NCBI GenBank assembly: GCA_017420755.1
Contig: JAFQOG010000050.1
Location: 4,146 to 68,145, forward strand
DNA length: 64,000 bases
Direction of reading: 5' to 3'
From: Clostridia bacterium
Lineage (GTDB): Bacteria > Bacillota > Clostridia > Oscillospirales > CAG-272
In this document: one piece after another, positions 33,500 through 64,000 of the stretch
How positions within the stretch are numbered: the stretch's first letter is position 1
How the letters are laid out: the number at the start of each line of letters is the position of its first letter
The notes under the pieces: model-generated
The model's database searches: none
Seen by the model: only the letters and a program-made list of their open reading frames with translations
Told to the model about the DNA's origin: nothing
Translations under genes and position numbers: made by a program

Positions 33500-33513
33500 G
33501 TTTACCGCCTAAA

Positions 33514-42997: not shown

Positions 42998-44290
42998 ATG
43001 AATTGGATAGAAAATGAAGCAATAAAAATCGAAAAGAAGATTATTGCCCACCATCGCTATTTGCACAAAAATGCCGAGTGTGGGTTTTCACTTGAGAAAA
43101 CATACAGCTATGTTTTCAACGTGCTAAAAGAGTTAGGTTGCCAACCGAGAAAATGCGGCACTATGGGAATTGCAACAAAAATCAGCGGAAATGGGGCAAA
43201 ATACGCCTTCACCCCTTATTCCCTCTCTATAAATTTAGACGAAAAAAACGAGCAAGAAATTACAAAATCACAGGAAAAAGATCGCCGTTTTTCCATACTT
43301 TTGCGAGCAGATATGGATGCATTACCAATGAAAGAAAAAACGAGCTTGCCATACAAAAGCGAAACCGAATGTATGCACTCATGTGGACACGACATGCACA
43401 CAGCTATGCTTCTCGGTGCTGCAGAAATACTTATCAACAACAAGGACAAATTCGCATCAGAAATAACTCTTTTATTTCAGCCGTCGGAAGAAACGCTTGA
43501 AGGAGCTAATGATATATTAAATTCTGGTGATTTAGACACGTCAACTATTGATTATGGAATTATGATACATGCCTTGACAGACACAAAATTAGACACAGGA
43601 GCCCTTATTTTGCCGCAATCCGAAACAATTGCGCCATGCGCGGACCTGTTTGAAATAGAGATTTTGGGCAAGGGTGCTCACGGAGCTATGCCTGAAAAAA
43701 CCATAGACCCTATACTTATTGGTGCTCACATTTCTCTCGCCTTAGAGGAGCTTATAACAAGAGAATTTGCAGGTGTGAACGGTACAGCACTGACAATTGG
43801 AGAATTCAATGGTGGAAACGCACCAAATGTTATACCGGAAGCATCAAAAATAAACGGGACAATCAGAACCTATGACGAAGCACGAAGAAGCTATATGAAA
43901 AAGCGAGTTGGGGAGCTCGCAAAAGCGCAGGCGGAGACCTTTAATGGCACAGCAAATGTCAGCTTTGGCGGTGGTTGCCCCACGTTCAAAAACGACATAA
44001 ATTTGTCAAAAAGCGCCCACACGTGTCTAAAAAACACATTTTCAAGTACTCGAATATGCAAAAACATTCCCGTGATTTTTGCGCCAAAAAGCGATACTCG
44101 TTCATCGCTTGCCTCGGAGGATTTTTCATATTTTTCACATAAATTCCCGTGTACAATGATTGCCTTAGCAGCCGGCAAAAGCGAGGATGGCTTTTCTCAC
44201 CCTTTGCACAGTCCAAGAGCTACATTTGATGAAAAAGCGTTATTATATGGCACGATTGCATACTGCGCCATTGGTGCAAATTTAAAATAA
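42998..44290 (+). CDS. M20D family amidohydrolase (aminoacylase / hippurate hydrolase type)
   Basis: 430 aa with MHSCGHDMHTAMLLGAA metal-binding motif, FQPSEE, and GKGAHGAMPE. An insertion of roughly 40 aa (NGAKYAF...EKDRRFS) precedes LRADMDALP. Confidence 0.8.
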   Translation: MNWIENEAIKIEKKIIAHHRYLHKNAECGFSLEKTYSYVFNVLKELGCQPRKCGTMGIATKISGNGAKYAFTPYSLSINLDEKNEQEITKSQEKDRRFSILLRADMDALPMKEKTSLPYKSETECMHSCGHDMHTAMLLGAAEILINNKDKFASEITLLFQPSEETLEGANDILNSGDLDTSTIDYGIMIHALTDTKLDTGALILPQSETIAPCADLFEIEILGKGAHGAMPEKTIDPILIGAHISLALEELITREFAGVNGTALTIGEFNGGNAPNVIPEASKINGTIRTYDEARRSYMKKRVGELAKAQAETFNGTANVSFGGGCPTFKNDINLSKSAHTCLKNTFSSTRICKNIPVIFAPKSDTRSSLASEDFSYFSHKFPCTMIALAAGKSEDGFSHPLHSPRATFDEKALLYGTIAYCAIGANLK

Positions 44291-44318
44291 AAAAGCTCGG
44301 CTTTTTGCCGAGCTTTTT
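44290..44318. terminator. bidirectional terminator between the M20 gene and rfbB
   Basis: AGCTCGGC-TTTTT-GCCGAGCT flanked by an A-run and a T-run. Confidence 0.85.
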
Positions 44319-44320
44319 AC

Positions 44321-45340
44321 TTATCTGTTTTTATACATCTTGTCATAGTAGCTTTGATATTCGCCAGAGATAATAGTTTCCCACCATTCTCTATTTTCTA
44401 AATACCATTTTATTGTCAAATCAATGCCGTCCTTGAATTTGGTTTCAGGTAGCCAGCCAAGCTCTCGATGGATTTTAGTTGGGTCGATTGCATAGCGCAT
44501 ATCGTGTCCCTTTCTATCAGCGACATAGGTAATTAAATCCTCGCTTTTACCGAGCTTTTGACAAATAAGCTTTACTATATCTATATTTGCCATTTCGTTG
44601 TGTCCGCCAACGTTGTAAACCTCGCCTACTCTGCCCTTGTGTATAATCAAATCAATCGCCTTACAATGGTCCTTTACATAGAGCCAATCGCGAACATTTT
44701 CGCCTTTTCCGTACACTGGTAGGGGTTTTTCGTTCAAAGCATTAGCAATCATCAATGGAATTAGCTTCTCCGGAAAATGGTATGGACCATAGTTGTTTGA
44801 GCATCTTGAAATGGTCACTGGCAAGCCGTATGTTCTATGGTATGCGAGCACCAAAAGGTCTGCGCCTGCCTTTGAGGAGCTATATGGACTGCTTGTATGT
44901 ATCGGTGTTTCCTCTGTAAAGAATAGCTCCGGACGATCAAGCGGTAAGTCGCCATAAACCTCATCGGTTGATACCTGATGGTAACGGTCGATTCCGTATT
45001 TTCTGCAGGCATCCATCAAAACCTGAGTGCCAAGAATATTAGTCTTCAAAAACACCTCAGGGTTGTCAATTGAACGGTCAACATGACTCTCTGCTGCAAA
45101 ATTCACTACAATATTGGGCTTTTCGTCCTCAAATATCTTGTATATTTCCTCACGGTCGCAAATATTTGTCTTATAAAACTTGAAATTAGGGTTTTCAAGC
45201 GCGCCTTCAAGGGTCGAAAGGTTGCCTGCATAGGTTAAGCAGTCAACGCAAACTATCTTGTAATCACTATATTTTTCAAGCATATGATAAACAAAGTTTG
45301 AGCCAATAAATCCCGCCCCACCTGTCACAATGATAGTCAT
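44321..45340 (-). CDS. rfbB: dTDP-glucose 4,6-dehydratase
   Basis: 339 aa with GGAGFIGSN, the YSSSK catalytic motif, and an overall RmlB character. Confidence 0.93.
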   Translation of the reverse strand: MTIIVTGGAGFIGSNFVYHMLEKYSDYKIVCVDCLTYAGNLSTLEGALENPNFKFYKTNICDREEIYKIFEDEKPNIVVNFAAESHVDRSIDNPEVFLKTNILGTQVLMDACRKYGIDRYHQVSTDEVYGDLPLDRPELFFTEETPIHTSSPYSSSKAGADLLVLAYHRTYGLPVTISRCSNNYGPYHFPEKLIPLMIANALNEKPLPVYGKGENVRDWLYVKDHCKAIDLIIHKGRVGEVYNVGGHNEMANIDIVKLICQKLGKSEDLITYVADRKGHDMRYAIDPTKIHRELGWLPETKFKDGIDLTIKWYLENREWWETIISGEYQSYYDKMYKNR

Positions 45341-45341
45341 A

Positions 45342-46214
45342 TTATCTTCCTTCCTTTGCTAATGATATTAAGTATTGTCCGTAATCGGTTGTCTTTAGCT
45401 TTTCGCCAATGGTAAGAAGCTGTTCAGTTGAAATAAAGCCACGGCGCCATGCAATCTCCTCAATGCATGAAACATAAAAGCCTTGACAATCTTGTACCGT
45501 CTTTACAAATTCAGAAGCCTTTAGCATTCCCTCTGGAGTACCTGTATCAAGCCAAGCCATGCCTCTGCCAAGAAGTGCCACGTTTAATTCACCCATTTCA
45601 AGATAAGCATTGTTTACAGCGGTAATTTCAATTTCACCACGAGCTGATGGTTTAACATTTTTTGCAATTTCCACTACTCTATTATCATAGAAATAGAGGC
45701 CTGGAACCGCATATTTGGATTTTGGATTTTCCGGCTTTTCCTCAATGGATACAACCTTGTGGTTTTTGTCAAATTCAACAACACCAAAAGCACGCGGATC
45801 CTTAACCGGATATCCAAAAATAGTCGCCCCTGTGTCGTTTTTCATAGCATCTCTCAAAATTTTTGTCAAATTTGGACCATAGAAAACATTGTCGCCAAGA
45901 ATCAAGCAAACGCTATCATTTCCTATAAATTCCTCGCCAAGAATAAAGGCATCAGCCAAGCCCCTTGGGCTTTCTTGCACTTTGTACGAAATATTGATGC
46001 CTATCTCCTCGCCTGTGCCAAGAAGCTTTTCATAAACAGGAGTGTCCTCAGGAGTGGAAATTATCAAAACGTCTTTAATCCCTGCAAGTAATAAAATTGA
46101 TAGTGGGTAATAAACAAGCGGTTTATCATATATAGGCAAAAGCTGCTTTGAAACCGCCTTTGTCATAGGGTAAAGTCTTGTTCCCTTTCCACCTGCTAAA
46201 ATAATGCCTTTCAT
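45342..46214 (-). CDS. rfbA: glucose-1-phosphate thymidylyltransferase
   Basis: 290 aa. [18 protein letters not shown] and the following sequence are typical of RmlA. Confidence 0.95.
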
Positions 46215-46223
46215 ATGTACTCC

Positions 46224-47324
46224 TTAATTAAGAATTATATCACAAATTTTGTCAACATCTTCAATCGTTAAATCTGCATAAAGCGGCAAGGTCAATACTC
46301 TATTTGCTATGTGCTTCGCCACCGGCGTTTTTTCTTCCCCTGCCGTTTCTAAATTTTTGTAGCATTCAAATCCGTTAATTAGCGGATAGAAATACTTTCT
46401 TGCTATTATATCGTTTGCCTTTAGCTTTTCAAAAATCTCATCGCGAGTATATTTGTATCCGTCAAATACTACTGGGAAATATGCGTAGTTCGTTTCTACG
46501 TTTTCCTGAATTGGGCAAAGAATTATTCCATTTGTGTTACCAAGTCTTTCACGGTAACGAGCAACCGCTCGTCCTCTTTTCGCAATTTCCTCGTCTATAT
46601 GACGAAGATTGCAAATTCCCATTGCCGCTTGGAATTCGTTCATTTTAGCATTACCAGAAACGTAAATGCCCTCCTCGGGTGTGTGCAGTCCGAAATTCTT
46701 CATATCGGTTAAAACCACCTCAAGAGAGCTATCATTATATGTAACTGCACCGCCCTCGATGGTGTTGAACACCTTTGTTGCGTGAAAGCTGAACATAGAT
46801 GCATCTCCAAAGTTAGCTGATGAAACGCCCTTATATTTCACGCCAAATGCGTGCGCGGAATCATAAATAACCTTTAAATTATGCTTTTTTGCAATAGCAT
46901 CAATCATTTCAACATCGCACATATTTCCATATACGTGTACAGGCACAATAGCTACTGTTTTATCAGTAATAAGCGATTCAATTTTTGTTACATCAATGGT
47001 ATAATCTATTGGATTTATATCGCAAAATACAGGAACAAGCCCATTTCTTGCTATTGCATGGGTGGTTGAGGCAAAGGTAAATGGTGTTGTAATAACCTCA
47101 CTGCCCTTTGGAAAATTCATCGCCTCAATCACAATTTCAAGCGCTAAGTGCCCGTTTGTAAAAAGCGTAACGCCTTTTGTGTTTAGATATTTTTTCAAAT
47201 CAGCCTCAAGCTGCTTGTGCTTTGCACCATTGTTGGTCAGCCAACGCGAGTCCCAAAGCTCCTTTATTTCCTCGCAATACTCCTCATAATTTGGCATTGA
47301 CGAGCGTGTTACGTTAATTGACAT
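46224..47324 (-). CDS. DegT/DnrJ/EryC1/StrS family sugar aminotransferase (likely acts on dTDP-4-keto-6-deoxyhexose)
   Basis: 366 aa. The PLP-Lys motif is SFHATKVFNTIEGG. It is adjacent to rfbA and rfbB. No 3,4-isomerase was seen in the locus. Confidence 0.85.
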   Translation of the reverse strand: MSINVTRSSMPNYEEYCEEIKELWDSRWLTNNGAKHKQLEADLKKYLNTKGVTLFTNGHLALEIVIEAMNFPKGSEVITTPFTFASTTHAIARNGLVPVFCDINPIDYTIDVTKIESLITDKTVAIVPVHVYGNMCDVEMIDAIAKKHNLKVIYDSAHAFGVKYKGVSSANFGDASMFSFHATKVFNTIEGGAVTYNDSSLEVVLTDMKNFGLHTPEEGIYVSGNAKMNEFQAAMGICNLRHIDEEIAKRGRAVARYRERLGNTNGIILCPIQENVETNYAYFPVVFDGYKYTRDEIFEKLKANDIIARKYFYPLINGFECYKNLETAGEEKTPVAKHIANRVLTLPLYADLTIEDVDKICDIILN

Positions 47325-47343
47325 AATTTTCTCGTTAATTTAA

Positions 47344-48372
47344 TTATAAATTTAATTCTTTCATTATTTCATCAAGCTCTTGCTTAAAGCCTTTTTTAGT
47401 TGCGACTTGCCACACAAACTGACCTCTTGAGTTTCCTTCAACCATAACCCAACCGTCGTTGGTTAACGCGACGTCCCATCCAGTATATCTGTTCATCGGT
47501 ATAATCTGTGCTAATTCCTTGACCAGCTCAATCGCTTCGTTCCATCGAGGGATTTTAAACCCTATCAAATCATATTCAGTTTCAGGATGCTTTGTATATG
47601 ATTTCCCTTTTTCATCAGCTGCAGCTATGGTAATACCTGTTTGAGCATCAACCGCAACAATAATTCCTCCCGATCCTGCGTTATCGACAACCGAGTCCCC
47701 TCTGCCGACTCTTAAAAACGGATGTATAACCTCCACTCTATCATCAAAACGAATTGTAGGTATCCTTACAGTGTTGCAGGATTGAGGATGGAATTTGGCC
47801 ATTTCATCGACTTGAACAATAAGCTGCTCAGCCAAAAAACCATTCTTTCTTTTTTCTAATAGCTCGTAAAATGTTTCTTTTATACTTTTTTGTATGGTTA
47901 CGATCTCAACGCCTCTTCCAAAGCATGAATCCACAGGCTTTACGATAAAGCGGTTGTGCTTAGCGCAAAATTTTTCAAAAGCATCAAAGCTTTTTTCGTT
48001 TGTTACAGAACAAACATCTCGTTTGAAATATCTTTCAAAATATTGCAATGTTTTTTCTTTATCATCAAATATTTCAAGATTCCCATTTTGGTTCATTTTC
48101 TTTGCAGTTTCAGATCTCTGCCAATCCGAAACAAATTCCAAACGTTGCTCCATAGTCAAATCTTTAAAGCCTAAATAGCAAAACTCATCATATCCATAAA
48201 AATACTCTTTGTTTAAAAAGATCATTTCTTTTACTAATTTTCTTTTTTCTTTGTTCCCAATCTCGTTTCCATAAAACTTATTAATAGCATTTTTCGCTTT
48301 TTTTACATTTCTACGATGATCTACTATTTTTTTCAAAAAAGTTTTTCTTAAAATCTTTTTAACAACAGACAT
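47344..48372 (-). CDS. sugar-transfer-associated ATP-grasp protein (ATPgrasp_ST-like)
   Basis: 342 aa. FIVKPVDSCFGRGV and VDNAGSGGIIVAVDAQTG match my recollection of the PF14397-type family. Confidence 0.7.
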   Translation of the reverse strand: MSVVKKILRKTFLKKIVDHRRNVKKAKNAINKFYGNEIGNKEKRKLVKEMIFLNKEYFYGYDEFCYLGFKDLTMEQRLEFVSDWQRSETAKKMNQNGNLEIFDDKEKTLQYFERYFKRDVCSVTNEKSFDAFEKFCAKHNRFIVKPVDSCFGRGVEIVTIQKSIKETFYELLEKRKNGFLAEQLIVQVDEMAKFHPQSCNTVRIPTIRFDDRVEVIHPFLRVGRGDSVVDNAGSGGIIVAVDAQTGITIAAADEKGKSYTKHPETEYDLIGFKIPRWNEAIELVKELAQIIPMNRYTGWDVALTNDGWVMVEGNSRGQFVWQVATKKGFKQELDEIMKELNL

Positions 48373-48474
48373 AATAAGATCCTTTTCTTCCTAAACGTTA
48401 CTCCTTATGAAAAGCAACATTTTTCATTTATTTTAAAGATTATATATCGTATATTTCGTGTTTTATTTTCGCAA

Positions 48475-49782
48475 TTATAAAACCAACGGCCATAGCAACG
48501 GAACCAACACAAGCAACATAATCATCGATATCAACGTCATTGGTCCTGCATACTTTAAATAATCGCTGAATTTATAGTTTGCAACCATTGACATACCTAT
48601 TGTTGTATTAGCCAAAGGAGTAGCAACGGCCATAGCCGCGGCTATTGTCAAGCCAATTGCAAACGCATATGTATTGTAGCCCATTTCCGCGGTTATAGAG
48701 AAAACAACCGGCAAAATGATTGTTAAAACCGTAGAGTTCGAAAGGAACTGCGTTAAAACGATAACCAAAACAAGGAAGGCAAAATACAACCAGAATGCAG
48801 GAATATTAGAACCAAACAATCCTATAAACCACTTAGCAAGCAATTCACCGCCGCCGCTTGAATTTAAGCCTGCGGCTATTCCAAGACAAGCACAGAACCA
48901 AATTGCCAAATTCCAGTTGATGCTTTTAAGCGCATCCTTGTGAGAAATACAACCGGTCAAAACACACACGAGTGCGGAAATAAGCGCAACCGTTCCCACG
49001 TTAAATGCAGGTATTGACTTTTTAATAGTGTCCGCCAAAACAAACAATATAAGTGTTGCGATGAATATAACCGCCATAATTATCATCTTGCTTTTCTTAT
49101 ATTCTGTCTTTTCTGCTGCTTTTTTATCGATAGGAACCTCTGTATAATCTTCACGTTTTCCCCAAATCTTTTTGCCAAGAGGATATCCGATAAAGCCTGC
49201 ATATAAAACCAACACCGCTATTATTATAAATCCGGGAATCGAGAAGGAAAAGAATCCAAAGCCCTTTCCCGCGCCTAAATATTCTTCCAAAAGTCCGTTA
49301 GCCGTCAGCTGTGTGGTTGAGCCAACCAATGTTGCCGCGCCGCCAATTACCGCCGCCATTGAAACAGGCATAATAACGTTTTTAAATCTCACCTTTTCAT
49401 TTGACGAGGCAATACCCGTTAAAATGGAAATCATAATCGCAAGCGTTGCAATATTTGAAAGAAATGCCGATATAATAGCCGTTATTGCCGTACTGAGAAT
49501 AACAACAAGTCTTTCGTTTCCGCGCGCCAACTTGATTACCGAGTTTCCTACCAGCTGCGCCAAGCCCGTGTTAAAGGTTGCTTGTCCGACAACCATCATT
49601 GCGCAAATTAAAACAATTGTGCTGCTCCCGAAATTTTTAAATCCGTCGCTAAACGATACCACGTTTGTTAGCATCATTGCGGCAAGTCCAAGTAGCGCCA
49701 CAACGGCCGTCGGAAGCTTGTTCCAAATGAATAGAACAACAACGACCGCAAATATAATCAAGCTTGTAATCGCCGGACTCAT
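48475..49782 (-). CDS. SLC13/DASS- or CitMHS-like anion permease (ArsB/NhaD superfamily)
   Basis: 435-aa polytopic membrane protein with a central charged loop (KREDYTEVPIDKKAAEKTEYKKSK). The start forms an ATGA overlap with the upstream ATP-grasp stop. Confidence 0.65.
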   Translation of the reverse strand: MSPAITSLIIFAVVVVLFIWNKLPTAVVALLGLAAMMLTNVVSFSDGFKNFGSSTIVLICAMMVVGQATFNTGLAQLVGNSVIKLARGNERLVVILSTAITAIISAFLSNIATLAIMISILTGIASSNEKVRFKNVIMPVSMAAVIGGAATLVGSTTQLTANGLLEEYLGAGKGFGFFSFSIPGFIIIAVLVLYAGFIGYPLGKKIWGKREDYTEVPIDKKAAEKTEYKKSKMIIMAVIFIATLILFVLADTIKKSIPAFNVGTVALISALVCVLTGCISHKDALKSINWNLAIWFCACLGIAAGLNSSGGGELLAKWFIGLFGSNIPAFWLYFAFLVLVIVLTQFLSNSTVLTIILPVVFSITAEMGYNTYAFAIGLTIAAAMAVATPLANTTIGMSMVANYKFSDYLKYAGPMTLISMIMLLVLVPLLWPLVL

Positions 49783-51071
49783 TGATTTTCACCATACCTT
49801 TCAAATAGTCTTCTCACGTCAAAATCTTTATATTTCATACTTTTGCCGTTTTCATCTAAAACGTCGACCGCGTTTTGAATGGATTTAATCGCTTCAGCAA
49901 CTTCTTTAATATTTCCGCTTCGAATGACAGCCCTAAAGCCTCTTTGCGACAACGTGTTGTTGTCAACAATTTTTTCTCCAACATCATGCATATATTCCGC
50001 CGACTTTACACATTTCAAAGCCAAAGCATCTTCAAGTCCGAATTGCTTTGATATAGTTCCTCCGTGAAGCCATATGTTATAATTCAACATATATTCGGGA
50101 AACTCGGCATTATCCTTGCTAAGATCACCGCAGCCCATTTCACCGGTAACAGCATGATAAAGCATCATTTTCATAAAATTGATTCCGTTAATTTCCTCAA
50201 TCAAGCGGTAATCGTGTGCTCCGTTTGGACGGTATCCGCATTCAAAAAGCACGATTCGTTCTTTTGTCGCCACACCTTGGAAAAATACTGTTCCGTCAGT
50301 CGCCTTCATACCCTTAAGCATCGAAACGACGTTTGGATTGATTTCTCTTTGATACATCGGCAAATAACACGACGGGCAAACCAACACATCTCCTTGAGAG
50401 GTTATGTTTTCATGATCCTCGGAAATAAGCTTATCTCTAAAGCAGGATAGTGATATTTCTCCGTTTTTCATTGTATAAGTAGCCGTTATCTCATCGCCTA
50501 CTACATATTCTTCAACCAAAACATTTTTGCCGGGCGATACGGAAAGAGCATATTCGTAAGCTTCATGCAATTCTTCTTTTGTTCTGCAAATACGAACGCC
50601 ACGTCCACCGCTGCTGTCAACAGGCTTAACTATAACCGGGAACTCAACCTTAGTTACGTCTATATCATTATTTGTAATTGCATCTTTATAATCCTTTGGA
50701 ACGGACACTCCATACTCTCGGCATACTTCCTTGAAAAACTTTTTGTCCAAGGACATATGTATCTGCTCCTTAGATGCATAAAACGGCAAATTCAAGCGAT
50801 CACAAATTTCTCTTGCGTACGGAAGCATAGAATCGATAAACGCTGTAAAAATTCCATCCACCTTTTCTTTTTTACAAAACTCCACAACCGCATCAACGTC
50901 GGTTGTGCTGATTAAGTGAGCCTCATCAGCCACCTTTTTTGCGGGAGAATCGGGCAAATAATCAATAACTATCGTATAAATTTCCATTTCCTTTGCTATT
51001 TTAACAGGCTCACATAGAGCGCGTATAGCTCCTAAAAACAGCAGACGTTTTCCTTTTACTTCTTCGTACAT
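49779..51071 (-). CDS. ATP-grasp domain ligase (carboxylate-amine ligase type)
   Basis: 430 aa with a pre-ATP-grasp Rossmann region (KRLLFLGA). FPVIVKPVDSSGGRGV and the LVEEYV motif are present. Confidence 0.8.
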   Translation of the reverse strand: MYEEVKGKRLLFLGAIRALCEPVKIAKEMEIYTIVIDYLPDSPAKKVADEAHLISTTDVDAVVEFCKKEKVDGIFTAFIDSMLPYAREICDRLNLPFYASKEQIHMSLDKKFFKEVCREYGVSVPKDYKDAITNNDIDVTKVEFPVIVKPVDSSGGRGVRICRTKEELHEAYEYALSVSPGKNVLVEEYVVGDEITATYTMKNGEISLSCFRDKLISEDHENITSQGDVLVCPSCYLPMYQREINPNVVSMLKGMKATDGTVFFQGVATKERIVLFECGYRPNGAHDYRLIEEINGINFMKMMLYHAVTGEMGCGDLSKDNAEFPEYMLNYNIWLHGGTISKQFGLEDALALKCVKSAEYMHDVGEKIVDNNTLSQRGFRAVIRSGNIKEVAEAIKSIQNAVDVLDENGKSMKYKDFDVRRLFERYGENQ

Positions 51072-51131
51072 TTATTTCTCCTTAAGTTTAATACAGTGTT
51101 TTTAACCACAGCTTTTTTCTTTGAATTTCGT

Positions 51132-52604: not shown

Positions 52605-52623
52605 GCAAGCCTCCTTCTTGAAG

Positions 52624-55290: not shown

Positions 55291-55311
55291 TTATTTCTCC
55301 CTTCTAATTTT

Positions 55312-56259: not shown

Positions 56260-56301
56260 GTTGAATCCTTTTATACTTTGATAATATTCTCTCGTTTCGG
56301 A

Positions 56302-57270
56302 CTAATGCGCTTTTCCCTGCTTGCGACTCATAATTTTTAAATATAGCCTTGGACAAATCGAAGCGACCAGTGCTTTTGCCTTTGCCCTATATCTAAGCTT
56401 TTTAAACGAACGCAAGTTTAAATGCTTTTTCAAATTTTTAATAATATTTTTTGAATATTTCTTTTGAGCCTCTTTATCCCCTGCTATTTTAGAAAGCATA
56501 CCAAGATCACTATTTATAGTCTTTGCATCCACAGTTGACACAAGGGCTTTTTTATCTTTTTCCAAAACAAGCTCTCTCATTTTTTGGCACGCTTTATGAG
56601 ATGAATTCATATAGCGCTCGGTGAGTTTGCTGTGAAATGCACTATTTTCGTGTAAATAATAATTATATAACGGCTCGGAGAAGTATACGATTTTTATAGG
56701 ATTAAACAAAATCCTTAAAACCGCAAGCATATCTTCAAAAATATAAATATCCTCATCGAGTCTTACGTTTTCAAAAAGCTCTGCCTTGAAAAGTTTGTTA
56801 CATAGATGTCCTGCAAAGGGCTTTCCCTTTAAAACCACCTCAAGCGCGACAGATGAATCATAGATTTCTGTTTTTATTTCGCTTTTGTTTTCTTGTACTC
56901 CACTCGGAGTAATAAATTTAAAATCACAAACAGAAATTTGAGCGTTTGAATCTATTAAATTGTTATAAAGCTTTTCATACATAGTCGGCTCGATTGTATC
57001 ATCACTGTCAACAAAGCCAACATATTCACCTTTTATATTATTAAGTGCAGTATTTCTCGCAGAGGAAACGCCGCCGTTTTCTTTATGTATTACAACTATT
57101 CTATCGTCTTTTTTCGCCCACTCGTCGCAAATTTTGCCACAATTGTCGGGCGAGCCATCGTCTACAAGTATTAACTCAAAATCCTTAAACGTCTGATTTA
57201 AAATACTTTCAATACATTTATCAAGATATTTTTCAGTTTTATATACAGGAACTATTATGCTTATTTTCAT
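56302..57270 (-). CDS. family 2 glycosyltransferase
   Basis: ISIIVPVYKTEKYLDKCIESILNQT...VDDGSPD...DSDD. Confidence 0.88.
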   Translation of the reverse strand: MKISIIVPVYKTEKYLDKCIESILNQTFKDFELILVDDGSPDNCGKICDEWAKKDDRIVVIHKENGGVSSARNTALNNIKGEYVGFVDSDDTIEPTMYEKLYNNLIDSNAQISVCDFKFITPSGVQENKSEIKTEIYDSSVALEVVLKGKPFAGHLCNKLFKAELFENVRLDEDIYIFEDMLAVLRILFNPIKIVYFSEPLYNYYLHENSAFHSKLTERYMNSSHKACQKMRELVLEKDKKALVSTVDAKTINSDLGMLSKIAGDKEAQKKYSKNIIKNLKKHLNLRSFKKLRYRAKAKALVASICPRLYLKIMSRKQGKAH

Positions 57271-57292
57271 AAATTCTCCAAAACTTCAAAAC

Positions 57293-58447
57293 TTACAAGC
57301 CTAACTCGTCAATCAGGCTTTTGGCTGTATTTCTTTCTTCTTGTGTCACGCTTTTATTGCTTTTTATTTCCGTGGTGGCGCGCTTTCTGCCTGGACCAAA
57401 GGCTATTCTAAACCACCTTACAATCTGCAAAAATGGATATAGAATCGGCCATTTAATTAAAACCTTATAGCTTTTCTTTAGCTGGCTATATGGCATAAAG
57501 ATTCTGCCCCAAAGGCGCTTAAATGCTCCGCCCTTAGCCCCCTGCTCCATTGCAAGATTTTGCTCAACCGTTCCGTAAACACCGCCTTGCAAAATAAAGT
57601 CTTCCATGCTTTTTGTAATCTCTGTATGACTTTGATTTTCAAACCACGCGTCAACAAGTAAAAGTGCAAAGCTATAAAGCTTGTCAAGTCCTTCTTGCTT
57701 AAGAAGCGCAGCGACCTTATTTTCATCATAATTCATTTTGTTCTTTATAATCCACAAATCAACAAGTGGCTTTATTCCGCATCCACCATACTTAAAATGC
57801 TTTGCCATATGGTATATGTGGAAAAACAAGAACATTTCATTTGTCATTGCGTATTCGCAACCCGAAACCTTAACAAGCTCTCCACCGTCCCAAATTTGGG
57901 TTAAAAGTGGCGATTCCTTAAAATCTGTTTCTTTAAGCTCAAAGTGAAGCTCTATATGTACTCTGTTCGGCGACAGTAAAGAAATATCGTGAGTTGAAAC
58001 GAATGTGCACTCGTAATTTAGCTCATTGACAATCAAGCCCTTTGCTTTTTCAATATCCTCTTTTTTAATTAAAATATCTATATCACAGCTTGTCCTTAGC
58101 CACGGCTCCTTATAGTAGTTTCTTAAAACTGAGCCCTTGAGTGGGAGAAATGGTATTTCGTTTTTCTCAAGCAATGAGCGAACGCGATTAAGTTCATAAT
58201 TTTGGTTTTCATATCTGAATATTGTTTTAAAAATAGACTTCTTATAATTTGCATCCGTATCGAGCACAAGCCCATTTTTATGTAGTCCATCAAAAACCAA
58301 CTGTGTTATATCGTGCTCCTTTGCCATTTGCAAAGCCTCGGATATAATTTCCTCTGTGCATAGCTTTTTGTCGTTTTCAGACAGAGGTGCTTCTTTTAAA
58401 GACGACTCAAGACAAGAAAACAGTATTCTATTTGTATTTTCGTTCAT
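57293..58447 (-). CDS. uncharacterised nucleotidyltransferase family protein (NTP_transf_5-like)
   Basis: 384 aa. IPFLPLKGSVLRNYYKEPWLRTSCDIDILI matches my recollection of the PF14907 family. Confidence 0.6.
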   Translation of the reverse strand: MNENTNRILFSCLESSLKEAPLSENDKKLCTEEIISEALQMAKEHDITQLVFDGLHKNGLVLDTDANYKKSIFKTIFRYENQNYELNRVRSLLEKNEIPFLPLKGSVLRNYYKEPWLRTSCDIDILIKKEDIEKAKGLIVNELNYECTFVSTHDISLLSPNRVHIELHFELKETDFKESPLLTQIWDGGELVKVSGCEYAMTNEMFLFFHIYHMAKHFKYGGCGIKPLVDLWIIKNKMNYDENKVAALLKQEGLDKLYSFALLLVDAWFENQSHTEITKSMEDFILQGGVYGTVEQNLAMEQGAKGGAFKRLWGRIFMPYSQLKKSYKVLIKWPILYPFLQIVRWFRIAFGPGRKRATTEIKSNKSVTQEERNTAKSLIDELGL

Positions 58448-58487
58448 TTATAGCACCCCTTTCTAAAATATAATCTAAAATATAATT

Positions 58488-59666
58488 TTATCCTAACGCG
58501 AAGAAATAATTTTCTGCGAAATTAACCATAAATGTATATATATCATTAAACATAAACATAAAGAACGCAACCGGCAAAACTATAATATTCTCCCAGCTCA
58601 TCTCTTTTTTTTCATTATGTATTGGTATTATCATAAGGAACGCGTAAGAAACCAAATACATAAATCTTTCAAGGTATAAATAGTTAAATGAAAGTCCTAT
58701 GGCAACAGCGCCAACCGTTGCTGTAAAGTTAGCTATTGTTTTTTTATACCCATCCTCATCCTTATATTTTTCCTTTGCCCTAAGCGAAATAACAAACAAA
58801 TATATAGATAAGGCAATAAAGCAAAAATATATAAGAATTGTTGCTCCATGAAAGCTTTTGAGTGCTGTCGAAAAGCTCTTGCTTTCAAGGGTTTGAAGGA
58901 TTCTATTAAACGAAAAGCGTAAATATCCGCTATTTACATTGTTTATCATAAATCGAGAAATTGGCTCTATCGCAAATCCAATTCCCAAAGCGATTAACAT
59001 TGTTAAAACAGGCTTTCTCAGCTTTGAAGCCAACCATGTAAGTATAACCACAAGTGCGAAGTTGTGAACAAAAATAGCAACCACACACAAAAGAACAGCC
59101 ATAACTATTGAAAGTGCCTTGTTTTTCTTTTTTGTCATCAAAAGATATATAGCCAAGGAAACAAGAGAAACGGCAAATGAGCATCTGATACCGGAAATTA
59201 CAAGCTTCATACCAAATGTACAAAGCCACATAAGAATTGCTAAAATTCTAACTTTTCCACTTGTCTGTGGCAAATAAGTTTTGAACATTTTGCGATATAT
59301 GTATCCAACTATCGCAAAATCAATAATAAGTGGAATTGTTGTTAAAAGATTTTTTAAATTTTCGGGTAACATGCTTATAAAATACGCAAAATAGTTAAAG
59401 ACATATAAGTCCTTATACTGGCTTTCAAAAACAACGTATTTTATTCCGCCCTCACGCATTTCGTCAAGCAAATAAAAGTGCTCAATCAAGTCCCATCTTA
59501 TAAACTCTTTAGGCTCAAAGAAAAACGAAAAAACAACAAAGATAGCAAAAATCGCAATTAAATATCCGCCACTGACTTTAGTGGAGGTTTTGCCTTCTGT
59601 TGCCAAGGTCAAACACATTGCAAAAAGCACTATTGCAAGAAATATAAAGCATATTATCTCTATCAT
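58488..59666 (-). CDS. EpsG/Wzy-like polysaccharide polymerase (polytopic membrane protein)
   Basis: 392 aa with about 10 or more hydrophobic helices and no other flippase-like signature. The call rests on position in the glycan locus. The start forms an ATGA overlap with the upstream GT. Confidence 0.55.
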   Translation of the reverse strand: MIEIICFIFLAIVLFAMCLTLATEGKTSTKVSGGYLIAIFAIFVVFSFFFEPKEFIRWDLIEHFYLLDEMREGGIKYVVFESQYKDLYVFNYFAYFISMLPENLKNLLTTIPLIIDFAIVGYIYRKMFKTYLPQTSGKVRILAILMWLCTFGMKLVISGIRCSFAVSLVSLAIYLLMTKKKNKALSIVMAVLLCVVAIFVHNFALVVILTWLASKLRKPVLTMLIALGIGFAIEPISRFMINNVNSGYLRFSFNRILQTLESKSFSTALKSFHGATILIYFCFIALSIYLFVISLRAKEKYKDEDGYKKTIANFTATVGAVAIGLSFNYLYLERFMYLVSYAFLMIIPIHNEKKEMSWENIIVLPVAFFMFMFNDIYTFMVNFAENYFFALG

Positions 59667-60733
59667 TTCTGTCCTCCCTTGTAAATGTCAATATATTTTT
59701 TTGCCATCTCTACCGATGAAAATGCTTGCGAACGATAAAGAGCATTTTGTCCAAGCTTTTTTCTCAGTTCTTCATCGTTTGAAAGACGCAAAAATGCATC
59801 CGCTATTTCTTTTGCATCAATCCTTGTCAAAATACCACTTTCGTTATTTGTCAGCATATCAGGAATTCCACCAACCTCTGTTGCAACAATTGGCAAGCCT
59901 GTGCCCATTGCCTCAATTAAAGTCATTGGTATTCCCTCATATATTGATGGTAAGGTGAAAACGTCCGCCTCGTGCAAAAATCCATAGACATTGCTTTGTA
60001 GTCCCAAGAATTTAACAGAGTGGGATAATCCGTTTTCCTTAGCATACTCCTCTATTTCTTCCTTTTTGGGCCCATCACCAATAAGCCAAAGCTCACTTTC
60101 CGGTTTTAGCGAATTGAATGCTTTAAAAGCATCTATAAGTCCTTTGTGGTTTTTTTCCTCAGAAAATCTTCCTATGTGAACTATTTTAAAGTTGTCATCT
60201 GTGCCATAGCTTTCTTTTTTTATACATTTTGATAAATTTATGCCGTTAAACACAACCGGAATATTATCAATACCATATACGTCAGCTACCGTTTCCTTTA
60301 CAGCCTCACTTAAAGCAACGGGAACGATGCCCTGCTTTTTATAAAATCTTTTAGCTAATATTTTATCGATTCTAGTAAGCTCCTTTTGTGCAACACTGTG
60401 CACTGTATGAGCGCGTGACGGCACTTTTGCTTTTTTTGCTGCTATCATAGCATATTTTTGCGATGACAAATGAGAATGAACAACATCCGGCTTTTCCTTC
60501 TCAAAAACCTTCTTAAGCTTTTTGAACATGGATATATCCATTCCCGGCTTTTTATCAAGAAAAATTATTTCAACACCGCTTTCTTTAAGTCTTTCAGTTA
60601 TTGGCGTTTTTTGGTTATACAAGCTTACTATTTTCACATCAACGCCCATATTCTTTAATTCAAGCGTTAAATTTTCACACATTATTTCAGCGCCACCCAT
60701 TAAAAGATTGGGTATAACCTGTATAACCTTCAT
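59663..60733 (-). CDS. family 4 (GT-B) glycosyltransferase
   Basis: C-terminal EGIPMTLIEAMGTGLPIVATEVGGIPD is the Glycos_transf_1 motif. Confidence 0.88.
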   Translation of the reverse strand: MKVIQVIPNLLMGGAEIMCENLTLELKNMGVDVKIVSLYNQKTPITERLKESGVEIIFLDKKPGMDISMFKKLKKVFEKEKPDVVHSHLSSQKYAMIAAKKAKVPSRAHTVHSVAQKELTRIDKILAKRFYKKQGIVPVALSEAVKETVADVYGIDNIPVVFNGINLSKCIKKESYGTDDNFKIVHIGRFSEEKNHKGLIDAFKAFNSLKPESELWLIGDGPKKEEIEEYAKENGLSHSVKFLGLQSNVYGFLHEADVFTLPSIYEGIPMTLIEAMGTGLPIVATEVGGIPDMLTNNESGILTRIDAKEIADAFLRLSNDEELRKKLGQNALYRSQAFSSVEMAKKYIDIYKGGQK

Positions 60734-60746
60734 AATTTTTCCTTTC

Positions 60747-61781
60747 TCATCTCTTGGATGAACAAATCAAATCCCAAATTTGTTTAGTTATTGTATCTAA
60801 TGAAAACTTTTCGGCAGATTTTAGACATTCTGCGCGGTATCCATTTATCTTTTCGATGTTTTCAACACAGTATTTTAACTTCGCATATAAATCCTCTGTG
60901 TCTGCGAATCTATATGTAATTGAGTCTTTTTCCGACAAAACATCAGCGTATGACTCCCACTCACTTGCCAAAACAGGAACGCCTGCTGAAAAGGCGTCTA
61001 TTATTGTTCCGGGTACGCCCTCTGTGTAGAACAGCGTTGGGAACAACAGCATATAGTGTCCCTTTAAAGCCTCTACGCTTTTGCTTGGATCGACAACCCC
61101 TTTATATTGAACAAAGGACGAATATTCCTCACATAGATTAGAAAATTCTTCCTTGTAGTCCTCACTAACCGGACCGTGTATATTAAGTGTGCAAACGTTT
61201 TTACCTGCCTCTTTGTTTAGTCTGTCACAGGCGCAAATTGCATCACCAATACCCTTTTGCTTTAAAATTCTAGAGAATATGCAAAGTGGGAGCGGCTCTT
61301 CAAAATCATATTTGATTTCTTTCTCGTTAATTGGAGTTATATCCTTGAAATTAGGAACGGTAACTACGTTATTAAAGCCCTGCGCCTCCAGCTTTTTTTG
61401 CATTGTTTTTGTTTCGGAAAAAATATAATCGAATTTTTTTAGTTGCTTTTTTAGTCCCTTTTTATTTTCCAAAAGCGATGGTAACCACGCGCCGATTACA
61501 CTGTATATCTTTACCTTTTTCTTTCCAAAAAGATTTATTATGCGCGTGTATATTTTTACGCTTCCACTTGCCGGTAGCATAATTATTACGTCGCTTTTTC
61601 GTGCTAACCTAACAACCTTGAAAAAGAACGAAAACGGATGCTTTTTCCATCTGTATGAATCAACGGTCAAAAATTCTTCTTTTTCGTTTAACAAAGCCTT
61701 TTCAAGGTTTCTTGTTTTCGTGGTTTGCCCGTCACACAGCTCTGTGCCCCTTGCAAAGTGTCCTAAAATGCCGATTTTCAT
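60747..61781 (-). CDS. GT-B fold glycosyltransferase (GT4-like)
   Basis: The TEGVPGTIIDAFSAGVPVLASEW motif. Confidence 0.75.
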   Translation of the reverse strand: MKIGILGHFARGTELCDGQTTKTRNLEKALLNEKEEFLTVDSYRWKKHPFSFFFKVVRLARKSDVIIMLPASGSVKIYTRIINLFGKKKVKIYSVIGAWLPSLLENKKGLKKQLKKFDYIFSETKTMQKKLEAQGFNNVVTVPNFKDITPINEKEIKYDFEEPLPLCIFSRILKQKGIGDAICACDRLNKEAGKNVCTLNIHGPVSEDYKEEFSNLCEEYSSFVQYKGVVDPSKSVEALKGHYMLLFPTLFYTEGVPGTIIDAFSAGVPVLASEWESYADVLSEKDSITYRFADTEDLYAKLKYCVENIEKINGYRAECLKSAEKFSLDTITKQIWDLICSSKR

Positions 61782-61800
61782 TTAAATTCTCCTGTGCTTA

Positions 61801-63012
61801 TCAATCCCTACGGAATAAGTCGCGAGTATAAACCTTATCAAAAACATCATCAAGACATGAATCATATCGGTTTGCTATTATAGCGTCCGACTTCGTCTTG
61901 AATTCATCAATATCGTTTACAACCTCGTTTCCGTAAAAGAGCTCTCCGCTATTTAAAGTAGGCTCATAAATTATTATTTTTGCACCGTTTGCGCTGATTC
62001 TCTTCATTACACCCTGGATTGACGACTGACGGAAATTATCCGAGCCCTCTTTCATAGTAAGCCTATATACGCCTACAACAGGGGCTTGTCCGTCCGAGTT
62101 TTTATGATCTGCTATTTTCAAAACTCTTTCAGAAATAAAGTCTTTTCTTGTACGATTGGATTGCACAATAGCCGACATCATGTTTTGCGGAACATCAGCA
62201 TAATTTGCAAGTAGCTGCTTTGTATCTTTAGGAAGACAATATCCGCCGTAACCGAAAGAAGGATTGTTATAATACGAGCCAATTCTTGGGTCAAGGCAAA
62301 CACCCTCTATAATTGAGCGAGCATCTAACCCTTTCATTTCCGCATATGTATCAAGCTCATTGAAATATGAAACTCGAAGCGCCAAATAAGTGTTAGCAAA
62401 AAGCTTTACCGCTTCCGCTTCAGTAGCCCCCATAAACAAGGTATCAATATTTTCCTTGATTGCGCCTTGCTTTAAAAGCTCTGCAAATGTTCTTGCAGCG
62501 TTAGCCATCTCTTCGTTTTCCATATCCGCACCGACAATAATTCTTGACGGAAAGAGGTTATCGTAAAGAGCCTTTGACTCTCTTAAAAATTCAGGGCTGA
62601 ACAATATTCTGTTTGTATTGTATTTGCTTTTCACCCTTTGCGTAAAGCCGACAGGAATTGTCGATTTAATCACAATAAATGCCGTAGGATTATAATTCAA
62701 AACACATTCTATTACGTTTTCAACTGCCGTTGTATCAAAGAAATTCTTTTCCGAATCATAATTTGTCGGAGCCGATACAACAACAAAGTCCGCGCCCTCA
62801 TATGCCTCTTTAGCATCTAAAGTTGCAAAAAGATTGAGTTCCTTTTCTTTGAAAAACTTTTCTATATATTCATCTTGAATCGGAGAAATTCTGTTGTTTA
62901 TTTTCTCTACCTTTTCAGGAATAATGTCAATCGCAACAACCTGATGATTTTGCGCTAACAAGGTTGCTATTGACAAACCAACATATCCCGTTCCAGCCAC
63001 TGCAATTTTCAT
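61801..63012 (-). CDS. ugd: UDP-glucose 6-dehydrogenase
   Basis: 403 aa with [14 protein letters not shown], the [10 protein letters not shown] catalytic Cys motif, and a UDPG_MGDP_dh C-terminal domain. Confidence 0.92.
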
Positions 63013-63036
63013 CTTTATAAACTCCTATCATTAAAT

Positions 63037-63855
63037 TTAATCGTTATCTTTATTTTTTACGGAATTAACATATCTTACTTTTTTCCAAAAGCCAAAATAC
63101 AAATTAACTAAAGTGTGCCATGTTGCTCTAATAGCGCCCATGTTTTCTCCGTAACGGAATAGCCTATAGTGACCGTTTAGTTTCTTTTTAAACCCGCTAT
63201 GAGAAATCGAATTGCTTCTTATACGATAAGATGCCAAGTTTTTGTCATAAAGATAGCAGTCACATTTTTTGCAAACCTTCAACCACATAGCGTAATCATT
63301 TCTGCATTTTAAAGACGGCTCCACTTGAATCAAACCAACATACTCATGATCATACATAACCGTCAAACATCCCAAATAGTCATATCTAAACATTTTTCTC
63401 TTGTTTATTTTTTTAGGTCCTGTTACTTCAACGTTTAAAGGATTGGATTTTTCATCAACATGGAAATAAGGAGTACCCGAAAAATGATATCCATTCTCAA
63501 CCATAAAGGCGATTTGCTCTTCGAGCTTTGTCGGAGCCCACAAATCATCGCTGTCAAGAAAGGCAATCCATTTTCCCTTCGCTTCTCTTAATGCATAGTT
63601 TCTTGAAACGGCGGCGCCACTATTTGCTTCGTTTTGAAGAATTTTAATACGCTCATCGTTAAACGAGCGGGCAATTTCAAGCGAATTATCAGTCGAGCAA
63701 TCGTCAACAAACAAAAGCTCCCAATTTTTATATGTTTGGGCAAGCACGCTTTTTATTGTTTCTGCCACATATTTTTCAGAATTATAGTTTGGCATTACAA
63801 TCGAAACCAAGCCGTAATCCTTTTCTTCGTTTGTTTTTTGATTCAATTCTTGCAT
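63037..63855 (-). CDS. family 2 glycosyltransferase (TuaG-like)
   Basis: VSIVMPNYNSEKYVAETIKSVLAQT...VDDCSTDNS...LDSDD. The ATG at 63855 (MQELNQ) is preferred, because the ATG at 63903 would sit almost at the predicted transcription start. Confidence 0.85.
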   Translation of the reverse strand: MQELNQKTNEEKDYGLVSIVMPNYNSEKYVAETIKSVLAQTYKNWELLFVDDCSTDNSLEIARSFNDERIKILQNEANSGAAVSRNYALREAKGKWIAFLDSDDLWAPTKLEEQIAFMVENGYHFSGTPYFHVDEKSNPLNVEVTGPKKINKRKMFRYDYLGCLTVMYDHEYVGLIQVEPSLKCRNDYAMWLKVCKKCDCYLYDKNLASYRIRSNSISHSGFKKKLNGHYRLFRYGENMGAIRATWHTLVNLYFGFWKKVRYVNSVKNKDND

Positions 63856-63911
63856 CTTATGTCCTTTATTACATATATAATTATTGCGCGTGGGTATACG
63901 CATACATTATT

Positions 63912-63940
63912 ATTATATATTATAGTATTTTATTTGTCAA
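63912..63940 (-). promoter_or_regulatory. sigma-A promoter at the head of the glycan locus
   Basis: The minus strand reads TTGACA-17 nt-TATAAT (perfect consensus). Confidence 0.65.
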
Positions 63941-63954
63941 GTAAAATCTTGCAA

Positions 63955-63985
63955 AGAAAAACCGCCGAGGCTCGGCGGTTTTTGT
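63955..63985 (-). terminator. terminator of the gene upstream of the window's right edge
   Basis: CCGCCG-AGGCT-CGGCGG with flanking A- and T-runs. On the minus strand it is followed by TTTTTCTTTG. Confidence 0.7.
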
Positions 63986-64000
63986 TTTGATTATTATTTA

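Follow-up and report, generated by a model that had tools for sequence, protein, structure and literature searches.

A 17-gene Wzx/Wzy-type glycan operon with three ATP-grasp ligases from a Clostridia bacterium, predicted to attach amide-linked acyl groups to an amino sugar

The subject of this report is a 17-gene glycan operon in an uncultured gut Clostridia bacterium of Oscillospiraceae type (assembly GCA_017420755.1). It lies within a 64-kb stretch of contig JAFQOG010000050.1 (positions 4,146 to 68,145), which was analysed as a whole and is referred to here as the window. All 17 open reading frames (ORFs) are on the minus strand, co-oriented and tightly packed, with gaps of -13 to 102 nt, and together they occupy positions 44321-63903. 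An earlier note on the same DNA had read this run as the probable source of a polymer decorated by amide-linked amino acids or organic acids. Proteins were annotated by Pfam and NCBIfam profile searches of the window ORFs, which reproduced nearly all gene calls in that note; the exception is its "DegT-like" ORF, here called X316, which has no Pfam match and keeps the name at the level of fold alone. In order of transcription, the features are as follows.

63957-63983, plus strand: hairpin terminator (12-pair stem, 6 GC) 3' of the upstream peptidyl-prolyl isomerase (PPIase) gene, insulating the operon
63912-63940, minus strand: sigma-70-type promoter, perfect TTGACA-17-TATAAT, at the operon head
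63037-63903, minus strand: GT2a, soluble GT2 glycosyltransferase (PF00535, 3e-40; best match TuaG, 228 bits, cutoff 400)
61801-63012, minus strand: Ugd, UDP-glucose 6-dehydrogenase (TIGR03026, 312 bits, cutoff 190; PRK15057, 556 bits)
60747-61781, minus strand: GT-B (GT4-like) glycosyltransferase, weak match (Glyco_trans_1_4, 38.6 bits)
59663-60733, minus strand: GT4 glycosyltransferase (PF00534, 2e-38; PF13439)
58488-59666, minus strand: EpsG-family membrane protein, candidate Wzy polymerase (PF14897, 36.6 bits, cutoff 30.1)
57293-58447, minus strand: NTP_transf_5 nucleotidyltransferase (PF14907, 1e-43), recurring in related loci
56302-57270, minus strand: GT2b, GT2 glycosyltransferase (Pfam)
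55312-56259, minus strand: GT2c, GT2 glycosyltransferase (Pfam), its position directly upstream of Wzx kept across relatives
53827-55290, minus strand: Wzx (MOP/PST flippase) half of an 888-aa fusion ORF (PF13440, 5e-98, 328 bits, residues 31-323)
52624-53826, minus strand: AG1, ATP-grasp protein resembling L-amino acid ligases (LALs), read through from Wzx (best Pfam match PF13535)
53017-53045, minus strand: second perfect promoter-like site, within the AG1 coding sequence and about 410 nt upstream of X316
51654-52604, minus strand: X316, divergent DegT-fold protein of 316 aa (by structure prediction), habitual neighbour of AG1
51132-51666, minus strand: PseH-like GNAT N-acetyltransferase, disrupted (Pfam/NCBIfam)
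49779-51071, minus strand: AG2, second LAL-like ATP-grasp protein (Pfam; nearest solved structures 4dim, 4e-17, and 3vot, 5.5e-8)
48475-49782, minus strand: CitMHS/DASS (SLC13-like) anion permease (Pfam/NCBIfam), proposed acyl-donor importer
47344-48372, minus strand: ATPgrasp_ST ligase (PF14397, 177.8 bits, cutoff 31.4, 3.5e-52, profile positions 3-277 of 278)
46224-47324, minus strand: DegT-family sugar aminotransferase (PF01041, 5e-98; best NCBIfam model DesI, 268 bits, cutoff 650)
45342-46214, minus strand: RmlA, glucose-1-phosphate thymidylyltransferase (TIGR01207 equivalog, 467 bits, cutoff 361)
44321-45340, minus strand: RmlB, dTDP-glucose 4,6-dehydratase (TIGR01181 equivalog, 484 bits, cutoff 365)
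44290-44318, bidirectional: intrinsic terminator common to the operon and the convergent M20 amidohydrolase gene

Both boundaries drawn in the earlier note, a perfect promoter at one end of the 17-gene run and a bidirectional terminator at the other, were found again at these coordinates. The promoter at 63940-63912 is not a chance match, since three perfect TTGACA-17-TATAAT sites occur in the window against 0.02 expected in shuffles; the other two precede a LexA-like repressor gene (6053-6025) and lie inside the fusion gene (53045-53017). The latter site overlies codons F-D-M...Y-N, is absent from the AG1 genes of other lineages, and could drive the decoration module separately. The terminator upstream of the promoter was scored on the plus strand, and its reverse complement ends in a T-run too, while the one at the far end exactly fills the gap between the convergent stops of the M20 gene (44290) and RmlB (44321). 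For the first gene, GT2a, the true start is more likely ATG 63855, which has an AAAGGA Shine-Dalgarno sequence upstream of it, than the most-upstream ATG at 63903. A conserved leader RNA was considered and rejected: folding is no better than in shuffles (z = 0.1 and -0.3), and neither the locus nor the window as a whole has an Rfam match that reaches gathering score. A megablast search of plasmids with the complete locus as query returned no match. The glycosyltransferase half of the operon (54001-64000) has a G+C content of 0.34-0.37, compared with mostly 0.38-0.44 elsewhere in the window, which fits horizontal exchange of that part.

The operon was compared with 110 related loci, comprising 30 genome loci, all from gut metagenome-assembled genomes (MAGs) of Oscillospiraceae/Clostridia, and 80 metagenome loci; the AG1-anchored metagenome set with adequate flanks (n=30) is treated as unbiased. 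The recurrent gene order is GT2c-Wzx-AG1-X316-(GNAT)-AG2-(transporter)-DegT-RmlA-RmlB, and within the AG1-anchored set 80% of loci carry DegT, 70% X316, 63% Wzx, 53% an AG2-like gene, 27% GNAT and 13% Ugd. AG1 is still 72-79% identical where Wzx is down to 42-52%. Loci that lack AG1 carry other ATP-grasp genes directly after Wzx, and the number of ligases varies from locus to locus. The window's GT2c, Wzx, DegT and RmlAB are closest to those of the locus L008 (73-94% identity; GT2c 73%, Wzx 79%), which is without AG1, X316, GNAT and ATPgrasp_ST. The window's AG1 and X316 are closest to those of L005 and L014, and its AG2 and permease are only 34% and 42% identical to their L008 counterparts. 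The window locus is thus a mosaic, in which the arms are conserved and the ligase-transporter core between them acts like an exchangeable cassette. The locus is a member of a widespread, uncharacterised Oscillospiraceae family and is not a new kind of system; the known kind is amide-decorated Wzx/Wzy glycans, and the family includes a new family of DegT-fold proteins.

RmlA and RmlB make dTDP-4-keto-6-deoxyglucose, which DegT-type enzymes aminate. The closest solved relatives of the locus DegT are DesI (2po3; 183 bits, 6e-53) and then the perosamine synthases, while the C-3 enzyme QdtB scores 162 bits; no 3,4-ketoisomerase gene lies in the locus, and the protein looks like a C-4 aminotransferase. 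The enzyme families assigned by profile would together yield dTDP-4-amino-4,6-dideoxyhexose. Ugd, above its TIGR03026 cutoff, retains its proposed role as the source of UDP-glucuronic acid (UDP-GlcA), and the supply of both nucleotide sugars is supported by Ugd, the RmlA and RmlB equivalogs, the DesI/perosamine-synthase-like DegT and the lack of RmlC, RmlD and ketoisomerase. dTDP-rhamnose had been discounted as the product, and this agrees with the finding of no dTDP_sugar_isom match and no RmlD equivalog in the window; RmlC occurs in some relatives. The presence of both a PF13440 Wzx and an EpsG-family polymerase supports the description of a Wzx/Wzy-type heteropolysaccharide locus, with the EpsG match of the candidate Wzy weak, yet above gathering score. 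The further label "teichuronic-acid-like" has behind it only sub-cutoff matches to TuaG, TuaB and TuaC. GT2c is a candidate transferase for the amino sugar, and no PDB relative was found for the NTP_transf_5 protein.

Three ATP-grasp proteins are encoded in the operon. AG1 matches ATP-grasp_4 at 32.5 bits (cutoff 27) and LAL_C2 at 21.9 bits (cutoff 29.4), and its nearest solved relatives are 4dim (1e-28, uncharacterised), 3vot (2e-20, an L-amino acid ligase) and 4wd3 (7e-5). AG1 and AG2 are paralogous, with 28% identity. The ATPgrasp_ST protein is of another lineage, RimK-like in its C-terminal region, and is an accessory that varies among such loci; no PDB relative was found for it. In the library searched, the literature on ATPgrasp_ST/PF14397, and on ATP-grasp proteins found with Wzx, yielded essentially nothing, and no experimental paper on the family. 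The thought that the ligases might be housekeeping enzymes, also raised in the earlier note, was rejected, as all matches to PurT, PurK, Ddl, CarB and PylC fall far under the NCBIfam equivalog cutoffs, none of which is approached by any of the three. Nor does AG1, AG2 or ATPgrasp_ST have an ATPgrasp_TupA Pfam match at E<=0.01. Elsewhere, tandem LAL-like ATP-grasp modules occur within one polypeptide (P0279, 799 aa; P0387, 824 aa), which hints, by Rosetta-stone reasoning, at a shared pathway for ligases of the AG1 and AG2 types. The suggestion that three ligases mean multiple or sequential decorations fits such tandem fusions, the variable ligase number and the adjacent GNAT.

The fusion of Wzx to AG1 is real in the DNA, and it is a rare stop-loss variant. 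The Wzx frame runs stop-free into the ancestral AG1 start (…KKKDDK-MKKILLLGG…) to give the 888-aa ORF, and the same fused frame is found in another sample. In related genomes Wzx (~484 aa) and AG1 (~400 aa) normally have a gene each, with -4 to +23 nt between the two, and in most relatives AG1 is a standalone ~400-aa gene. Among the genome loci the two are fused in the window, L005 and L033 only, and since the linkers are unrelated the fusion arose at least three times. No fusion was found among the 14 adjacent Wzx-AG1 pairs of the AG1-anchored metagenome set; the 120 nearest AG1 clusters are all standalone except for one 599-aa form with a Hexapep domain; and a search of 1.84 billion representatives gave one other end-to-end fusion cluster (P0260, a 50%-identity cluster). 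Thus the single ORF reported in the earlier note is confirmed, but it does not define the locus, as the genes are separate in most relatives. NCBI annotates the AG1 of the same MAG as a separate 400-aa protein, and in that public annotation (MBQ3041411-MBQ3041418) the GNAT and one of Wzx, GT2c and GT2b apparently have no protein accession; the fused frame and the GNAT frameshift are therefore hidden from view there.

The C-terminus of Wzx is cytoplasmic (PMC2932511), and the window Wzx ends in a strongly basic stretch just before AG1; this tail and the published topology were used because counting helices by simple hydropathy is too crude. Other Wzx proteins of the clade carry C-terminal extensions as well (P0294, P0360, P0391, P0308, P0361, P0263 and P0362), of which three are CDP-glycerol glycerophosphotransferases, one is WbqC-like, one thymidylate-kinase-like, and two have no confident domain. 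Flippase-tethered tailoring enzymes may be a wider pattern. That tailoring enzymes of the cytoplasm are repeatedly found fused to Wzx hints at a possible physical coupling between flipping and the last step of decoration.

X316, the habitual partner of AG1, has no Pfam or NCBIfam match, and no PDB match was obtained with its sequence (phmmer) or with a family profile. It represents a family of more than 7000 homologous clusters without a Pfam model, the few source-named members of which are all called "hypothetical". An AlphaFold (AF2) model built from 37 homologues reached a predicted local distance difference test (pLDDT) score of 87.6, and in Foldseek its top 50 PDB matches are all of DegT type (ArnB, KabA, WlaRG, PseC, WecE), with probability 1.0, template-modelling (TM) scores of 0.58-0.66 (about 0.64 for the best) and identities of 10-18%. 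Aligned with the locus DegT by hhalign, X316 is co-linear over its full length, if weakly (probability 3.4%, E 0.013), and the family-invariant residues D115 and K136 fall on the Asp of DegT that binds pyridoxal 5'-phosphate (PLP) and on its Schiff-base Lys. On the strength of this model, X316 is probably an active PLP-dependent enzyme, divergent and shortened. The description "DegT-like" is thus right at the level of fold, and membership of PF01041 by sequence does not hold.

The GNAT gene carries a frameshift, as had been noticed before, and its cause is now apparent: an independent sample has five bases (TGGTA) that are deleted from the window between 51541 and 51540. In that sample the same X316 is followed by an intact 179-aa GNAT, and there is one further single-nucleotide difference in 600 nt. 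The break is a strain-level inactivation, not a feature of the family. Downstream of it, the AG2 stop and the permease start overlap by 4 nt. The slot after AG2 holds a DASS permease in eight loci, including the window, a DctM transporter in five loci (six copies, two of them in L029) and an SSF transporter in one; all three families typically comprise importers. The use of this one position by three unrelated families of transporters suggests that the acyl donor is imported.

Overall, we believe, at a probability of about 0.6, that the operon builds a Wzx/Wzy-type surface heteropolysaccharide in which a 4-amino-4,6-dideoxyhexose carries amide-linked amino or organic acids. Consider how such a polymer might be made. 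The 5' half of the operon would serve the backbone, and the 3' half, which recurs in relatives as a cassette-like unit, the decoration. Ugd would provide UDP-GlcA, RmlA and RmlB would provide dTDP-4-keto-6-deoxyglucose, and DegT would aminate the latter at C-4 to give dTDP-4-amino-4,6-dideoxyhexose. Five glycosyltransferases would build the lipid-linked repeat unit, with priming by a transferase encoded elsewhere in the genome and with GT2c transferring the amino sugar. The LAL-type ATP-grasp enzymes would build an aminoacyl, acyl or short peptide-like substituent, amide-linked to the amino group of that sugar: AG1 would act with its habitual partner X316, AG2 would add a second unit whose carboxylate is imported by the translationally coupled CitMHS/DASS permease, and ATPgrasp_ST would add a further, strain-variable unit or else amidate GlcA. 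GNAT would cap a free amine, although its gene is broken in this strain. Wzx would then export the finished unit, and the EpsG-like Wzy would polymerise it. The most speculative point is the site of the ligation by AG1. Many relatives have the AG1 gene immediately behind that of Wzx, and in the window AG1 is fused to the cytoplasmic C-terminus of the flippase, so that at least this ligation may take place at the membrane, with the lipid-linked unit as substrate and shortly before that unit is flipped.

Where that ligation might occur can be argued in both directions. Adjacency to Wzx, the repeated fusion and, by analogy, the on-chain amidation of C. jejuni would favour the lipid-linked unit as substrate; the loss of the whole terminal sugar in a C. 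difficile ATP-grasp mutant, and the failure of Wzx and GT2c to co-vary with AG1, would favour the nucleotide sugar. A bolder extension would see in gut Oscillospiraceae a widespread 'peptide-on-sugar' assembly line of LAL-type cassettes with X316, GNATs and dedicated importers, which would put variable short peptides or acyl chains on a 4-amino-4,6-dideoxyhexose, its first ligase docked on or fused to the cytoplasmic face of Wzx so that decoration is mechanically coupled to export, and with the exchange of cassettes between the GT2c-Wzx and DegT-RmlAB arms as a main source of surface-antigen diversity in these commensals. Taken whole, that picture strikes us as doubtful.

No Bac_transf priming transferase, Wzz/CpsCD, LCP, RmlC or RmlD was found by Pfam in the window, which extends to the whole stretch what the earlier note had said of the unit with regard to priming, chain length and LCP, and tblastn with the L008 Bac_transf protein found nothing in the window. 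The flanks were read on a 171-kb metagenome scaffold with exactly the same proteins, and none of these genes, a priming transferase included, lies in the 10 kb right of the window or in the 4.7 kb that the scaffold still covers on its left. On the right edge, where such a gene in the same transcript had been an explicit concern, there are instead a 759-aa cyclophilin-type PPIase (Pro_isomerase), a terminator and then radical-SAM, decarboxylase, DAPDH and PFL genes; on the left, the scaffold ends after 4.7 kb of ORFs without a Pfam match. In place of a priming enzyme, GT2a was considered as a polyprenyl-phosphate glycosyltransferase and ruled out, as it is soluble and without C-terminal membrane segments. 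Because a Bac_transf gene heads the locus in 13 of the 30 relatives, among them the closest, L008, the lack of one is a difference from relatives and not a property of the locus type. In L008 Bac_transf stands directly 3' of a promoter and leader homologous to the window's, whereas the first gene of the window operon is the soluble GT2. Priming may come from a gene elsewhere in the genome, or else the locus is partly defective in this strain; priming transferases of the WecA/TagO type are commonly encoded outside glycan loci.

Several observations weigh against the proposed decorated heteropolysaccharide. The window supplies no priming transferase, chain-length regulator or ligase/LCP, and with a broken GNAT and a lost Wzx stop codon the operon could be partly defective in this strain. 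The match of AG1 to LAL_C2 and several other ATP-grasp Pfam matches fall under curated cutoffs, and the substrates assigned within the module are inferred from family, synteny and analogy. The AG1-anchored metagenome loci yielded no transporter, which limits the link between ligase and importer to about half of the genome-derived loci. Finally, Wzx-AG1 fusions are rare, and GT2c and Wzx are both closest to those of the AG1-less L008, so that neither looks tuned to an AG1-dependent decoration, which weakens the idea of coupling to the flippase.

The earlier note had left it open whether the amino-dideoxyhexose, GlcA or both are decorated. Under the GlcA option, one or more of the ATP-grasp ligases would act on GlcA in a glycan that is still growing or lipid-linked, activating its C-6 carboxylate and amidating it with an amine supplied by X316 and the permease. 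Ugd is in the operon, Cj1438C of C. jejuni amidates chain GlcA using amines made by PLP enzymes (PMC11800379), and X316 has a PLP fold and does not replace the sugar aminotransferase; ATPgrasp_ST, for its part, might have such a role. Yet none of the three ligases matches the TupA-like family of Cj1438C (E<=0.01), Ugd is present in 13-20% of AG1 loci against 80-100% for DegT, and AG1 and AG2 resemble ligases that activate the carboxylate of an amino acid. Since AG1 travels with DegT and not with Ugd (80% against 13% in the AG1-anchored set), and no TupA-type ligase is present, N-acylation of the amino sugar is favoured, and the Cj1438-type glucuronamide analogy becomes the weaker reading; we consider it unlikely for the locus, though it may hold for the ATPgrasp_ST enzyme alone. 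It is also conceivable, if quite unlikely, that the same chemistry serves an O-glycan transferred to S-layer, flagellin or another surface protein. The best NCBIfam match of the Wzx half is indeed an O-glycosylation flippase model, at 278 bits, far under its 720-bit cutoff, and chemically the nearest precedent belongs to flagellin (PMC5207245). The locus has no LCP ligase or chain-length genes, and large surface proteins flank related loci; an EpsG-type polymerase is nonetheless present, and no oligosaccharyltransferase-like (Wzy_C/PglL-type) protein was found by Pfam in the window.

Whether the predicted heteropolysaccharide is finished in this strain is a separate matter, and the operon might be a partly inactivated remnant. 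L008 shares the promoter and leader, with Bac_transf next in line there, and 13 of 30 relatives carry that gene; the GNAT has its 5-bp deletion, Wzx has lost its stop codon, and the NCBI annotation appears to give no accession for GNAT and one of Wzx, GT2c and GT2b. Decay is very unlikely all the same, given that a perfect promoter is followed by 19.6 kb in which 16 of 17 frames are unbroken, that the fused ORF recurs in independent samples and other lineages, that priming from outside a glycan locus is commonplace, and that the loss of a capping acetyltransferase is typical serotype-like variation. One might suppose, too, that AG1, X316, GNAT, AG2, ATPgrasp_ST and the permease serve to produce and secrete a free metabolite, either dipeptide-like or an acyl-amino acid, and merely hitch-hike in a glycan operon, for LAL-type ligases (3vot, 4wd3) normally make free dipeptides and a permease is embedded among these genes. 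We find this highly improbable: the module sits between Wzx and DegT-RmlAB in a tight operon, its position is kept in many independent loci, and the three transporter families found in the slot are typically importers.

Outside the operon, the window holds housekeeping genes (a dnaK operon, lysS, greA), a MoxR/DUF58/VWA cluster and a patch of small ORFs. The M20 amidohydrolase gene convergent with the operon (42998-44290, plus strand) scores above cutoff for TIGR01891; a homologue in L008 is convergent too, and one in L005 lies within the locus and in its orientation, which makes three loci only; the enzyme might supply or recycle an N-acyl amino acid. Beyond it lies a gene for an acidic protein of 2465 aa (34948-42345, minus strand; D 14%, E 14%, K 12%) with an N-terminal membrane segment and long, acidic, coiled-coil-like repeats. 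3' of this (26438-34914, minus strand) are genes for a MoxR AAA ATPase, DUF58, BatA/VWA and a VWA protein of 1305 aa, so that the whole resembles a Bat-like cluster with a partner of unusual size. A 976-aa protein (18567-21497, minus strand) has a lipoprotein-like N-terminus, Gly/Thr/Asp-rich 'GGSDTNTP' repeats and no Pfam match, and adjoins a putative amidase (Amidase_6, 21727-22305). At 2934-6053 (minus strand), small ORFs without Pfam match and an HTH protein stand beside the LexA-like S24/HTH repressor (5365-5973), and could be the remnant of a mobile element or a prophage control region. At least six consecutive ORFs (187-698 aa) without Pfam match, at 102-2833 (minus strand) and at 10958-15306 of L117, run up to the scaffold end; several are Thr/Val/Asp-rich and begin with a signal, lipoprotein-like or membrane segment, and the group has the look of a surface-protein cluster.

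The chemistry of amide-linked amino acids on amino sugars has been familiar for decades from O antigens and, more recently, from a clostridial flagellin glycan, yet to our knowledge the attaching enzymes remain poorly defined. The organisms that carry this locus family dominate ruminant and human gut communities, and we know of no characterised surface glycan from them. In this context the family offers concrete and abundant candidates, namely AG1, its fixed partner X316, AG2 with its importer, and the capping GNAT. If the proposed decoration of an amino sugar is correct, it would open aminoacyl and peptidyl sugar formation to testable enzymology, give a handle on serotype-like diversity among uncultured commensals, and supply new ligases for glyco-engineering.

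Among known systems, the closest precedent, by analogy of published gene content, is the sulfonated peptidylamido-Fuc3N of C. difficile type B flagellin, in which Fuc3N is N-acylated with taurinyl-Ala-Gly (PMC5207245). The RT027/023 locus comprises GT1-3, CDR20291_0244-0247 and rmlDACB, with a PF13535 ATP-grasp protein, an FdtB-like DegT and the nearby rml genes, and the ATP-grasp mutant is without the terminal peptidylamido-sugar (PMC5207246). Like the window operon, it is clostridial and brings together GT2s, a PF13535-type ATP-grasp 'carboxylate-amine ligase' (AG1 here), DegT and rml genes, and its product, an amino-dideoxyhexose with a short peptide acylating the amino group, resembles what is predicted here. 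In contrast to the window operon, however, it makes a protein O-glycan without Wzx/Wzy, on a C-3 amino sugar (FdtB-like), with one ligase where the window has three; it has a FemAB-like protein and an ornithine cyclodeaminase (OCD), for which the window ORFs scanned gave no Pfam match, and neither an X316-type protein nor a transporter.

C. jejuni HS:2 resembles the window in having an ATP-grasp enzyme that forms a glycan amide, PLP-dependent helpers (Cj1436/1437) and Ugd (Cj1441), along with Cj1435; its decoration is made on the assembled chain and not on a nucleotide sugar (PMC11800379), as may be the case here. It differs in its ligase, Cj1438C, a TupA-like ATP-grasp fused to a GT2 that amidates GlcA on the chain (PMC11800379), in activating the sugar carboxylate, and in its ABC-transporter-type capsule. 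The L-amino acid ligases BL00235/3VOT and 4WD3, with the uncharacterised 4DIM, are the nearest solved relatives of AG1 and AG2; LALs join two free amino acids in secondary metabolism, whereas AG1 and AG2 are fixed between a flippase and an amino-sugar pathway, with a sugar amine as the probable acceptor. The tuaABCDEFGH operon of B. subtilis is likewise a Gram-positive, Wzx/Wzy-type locus for an anionic polymer, and the window has TuaB-, TuaD-, TuaG- and TuaC-like functions and a polymerase, with scores against the Tua equivalogs of 152 bits for TuaB (cutoff 580), 146 for TuaD (700), 228 for TuaG (400) and 88 for TuaC (550). No counterpart of TuaA (priming) or TuaF is present in the window locus, and tua is without the amino-sugar, ligase and transporter module. 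Lastly, E. coli O antigens carry amide-linked glycine (O91), N-acetylglycine (O121), N-acetyl-L-serine (O114) and D-allothreonine (O63/O110) (PMC7685785). They belong to Gram-negative lipopolysaccharide, but they display the same chemistry as predicted here, an aminoacyl group, often N-acetylated, on an amino-dideoxyhexose in a Wzx/Wzy unit, and a ligase paired with a GNAT would give exactly such N-acetyl-aminoacyl groups.

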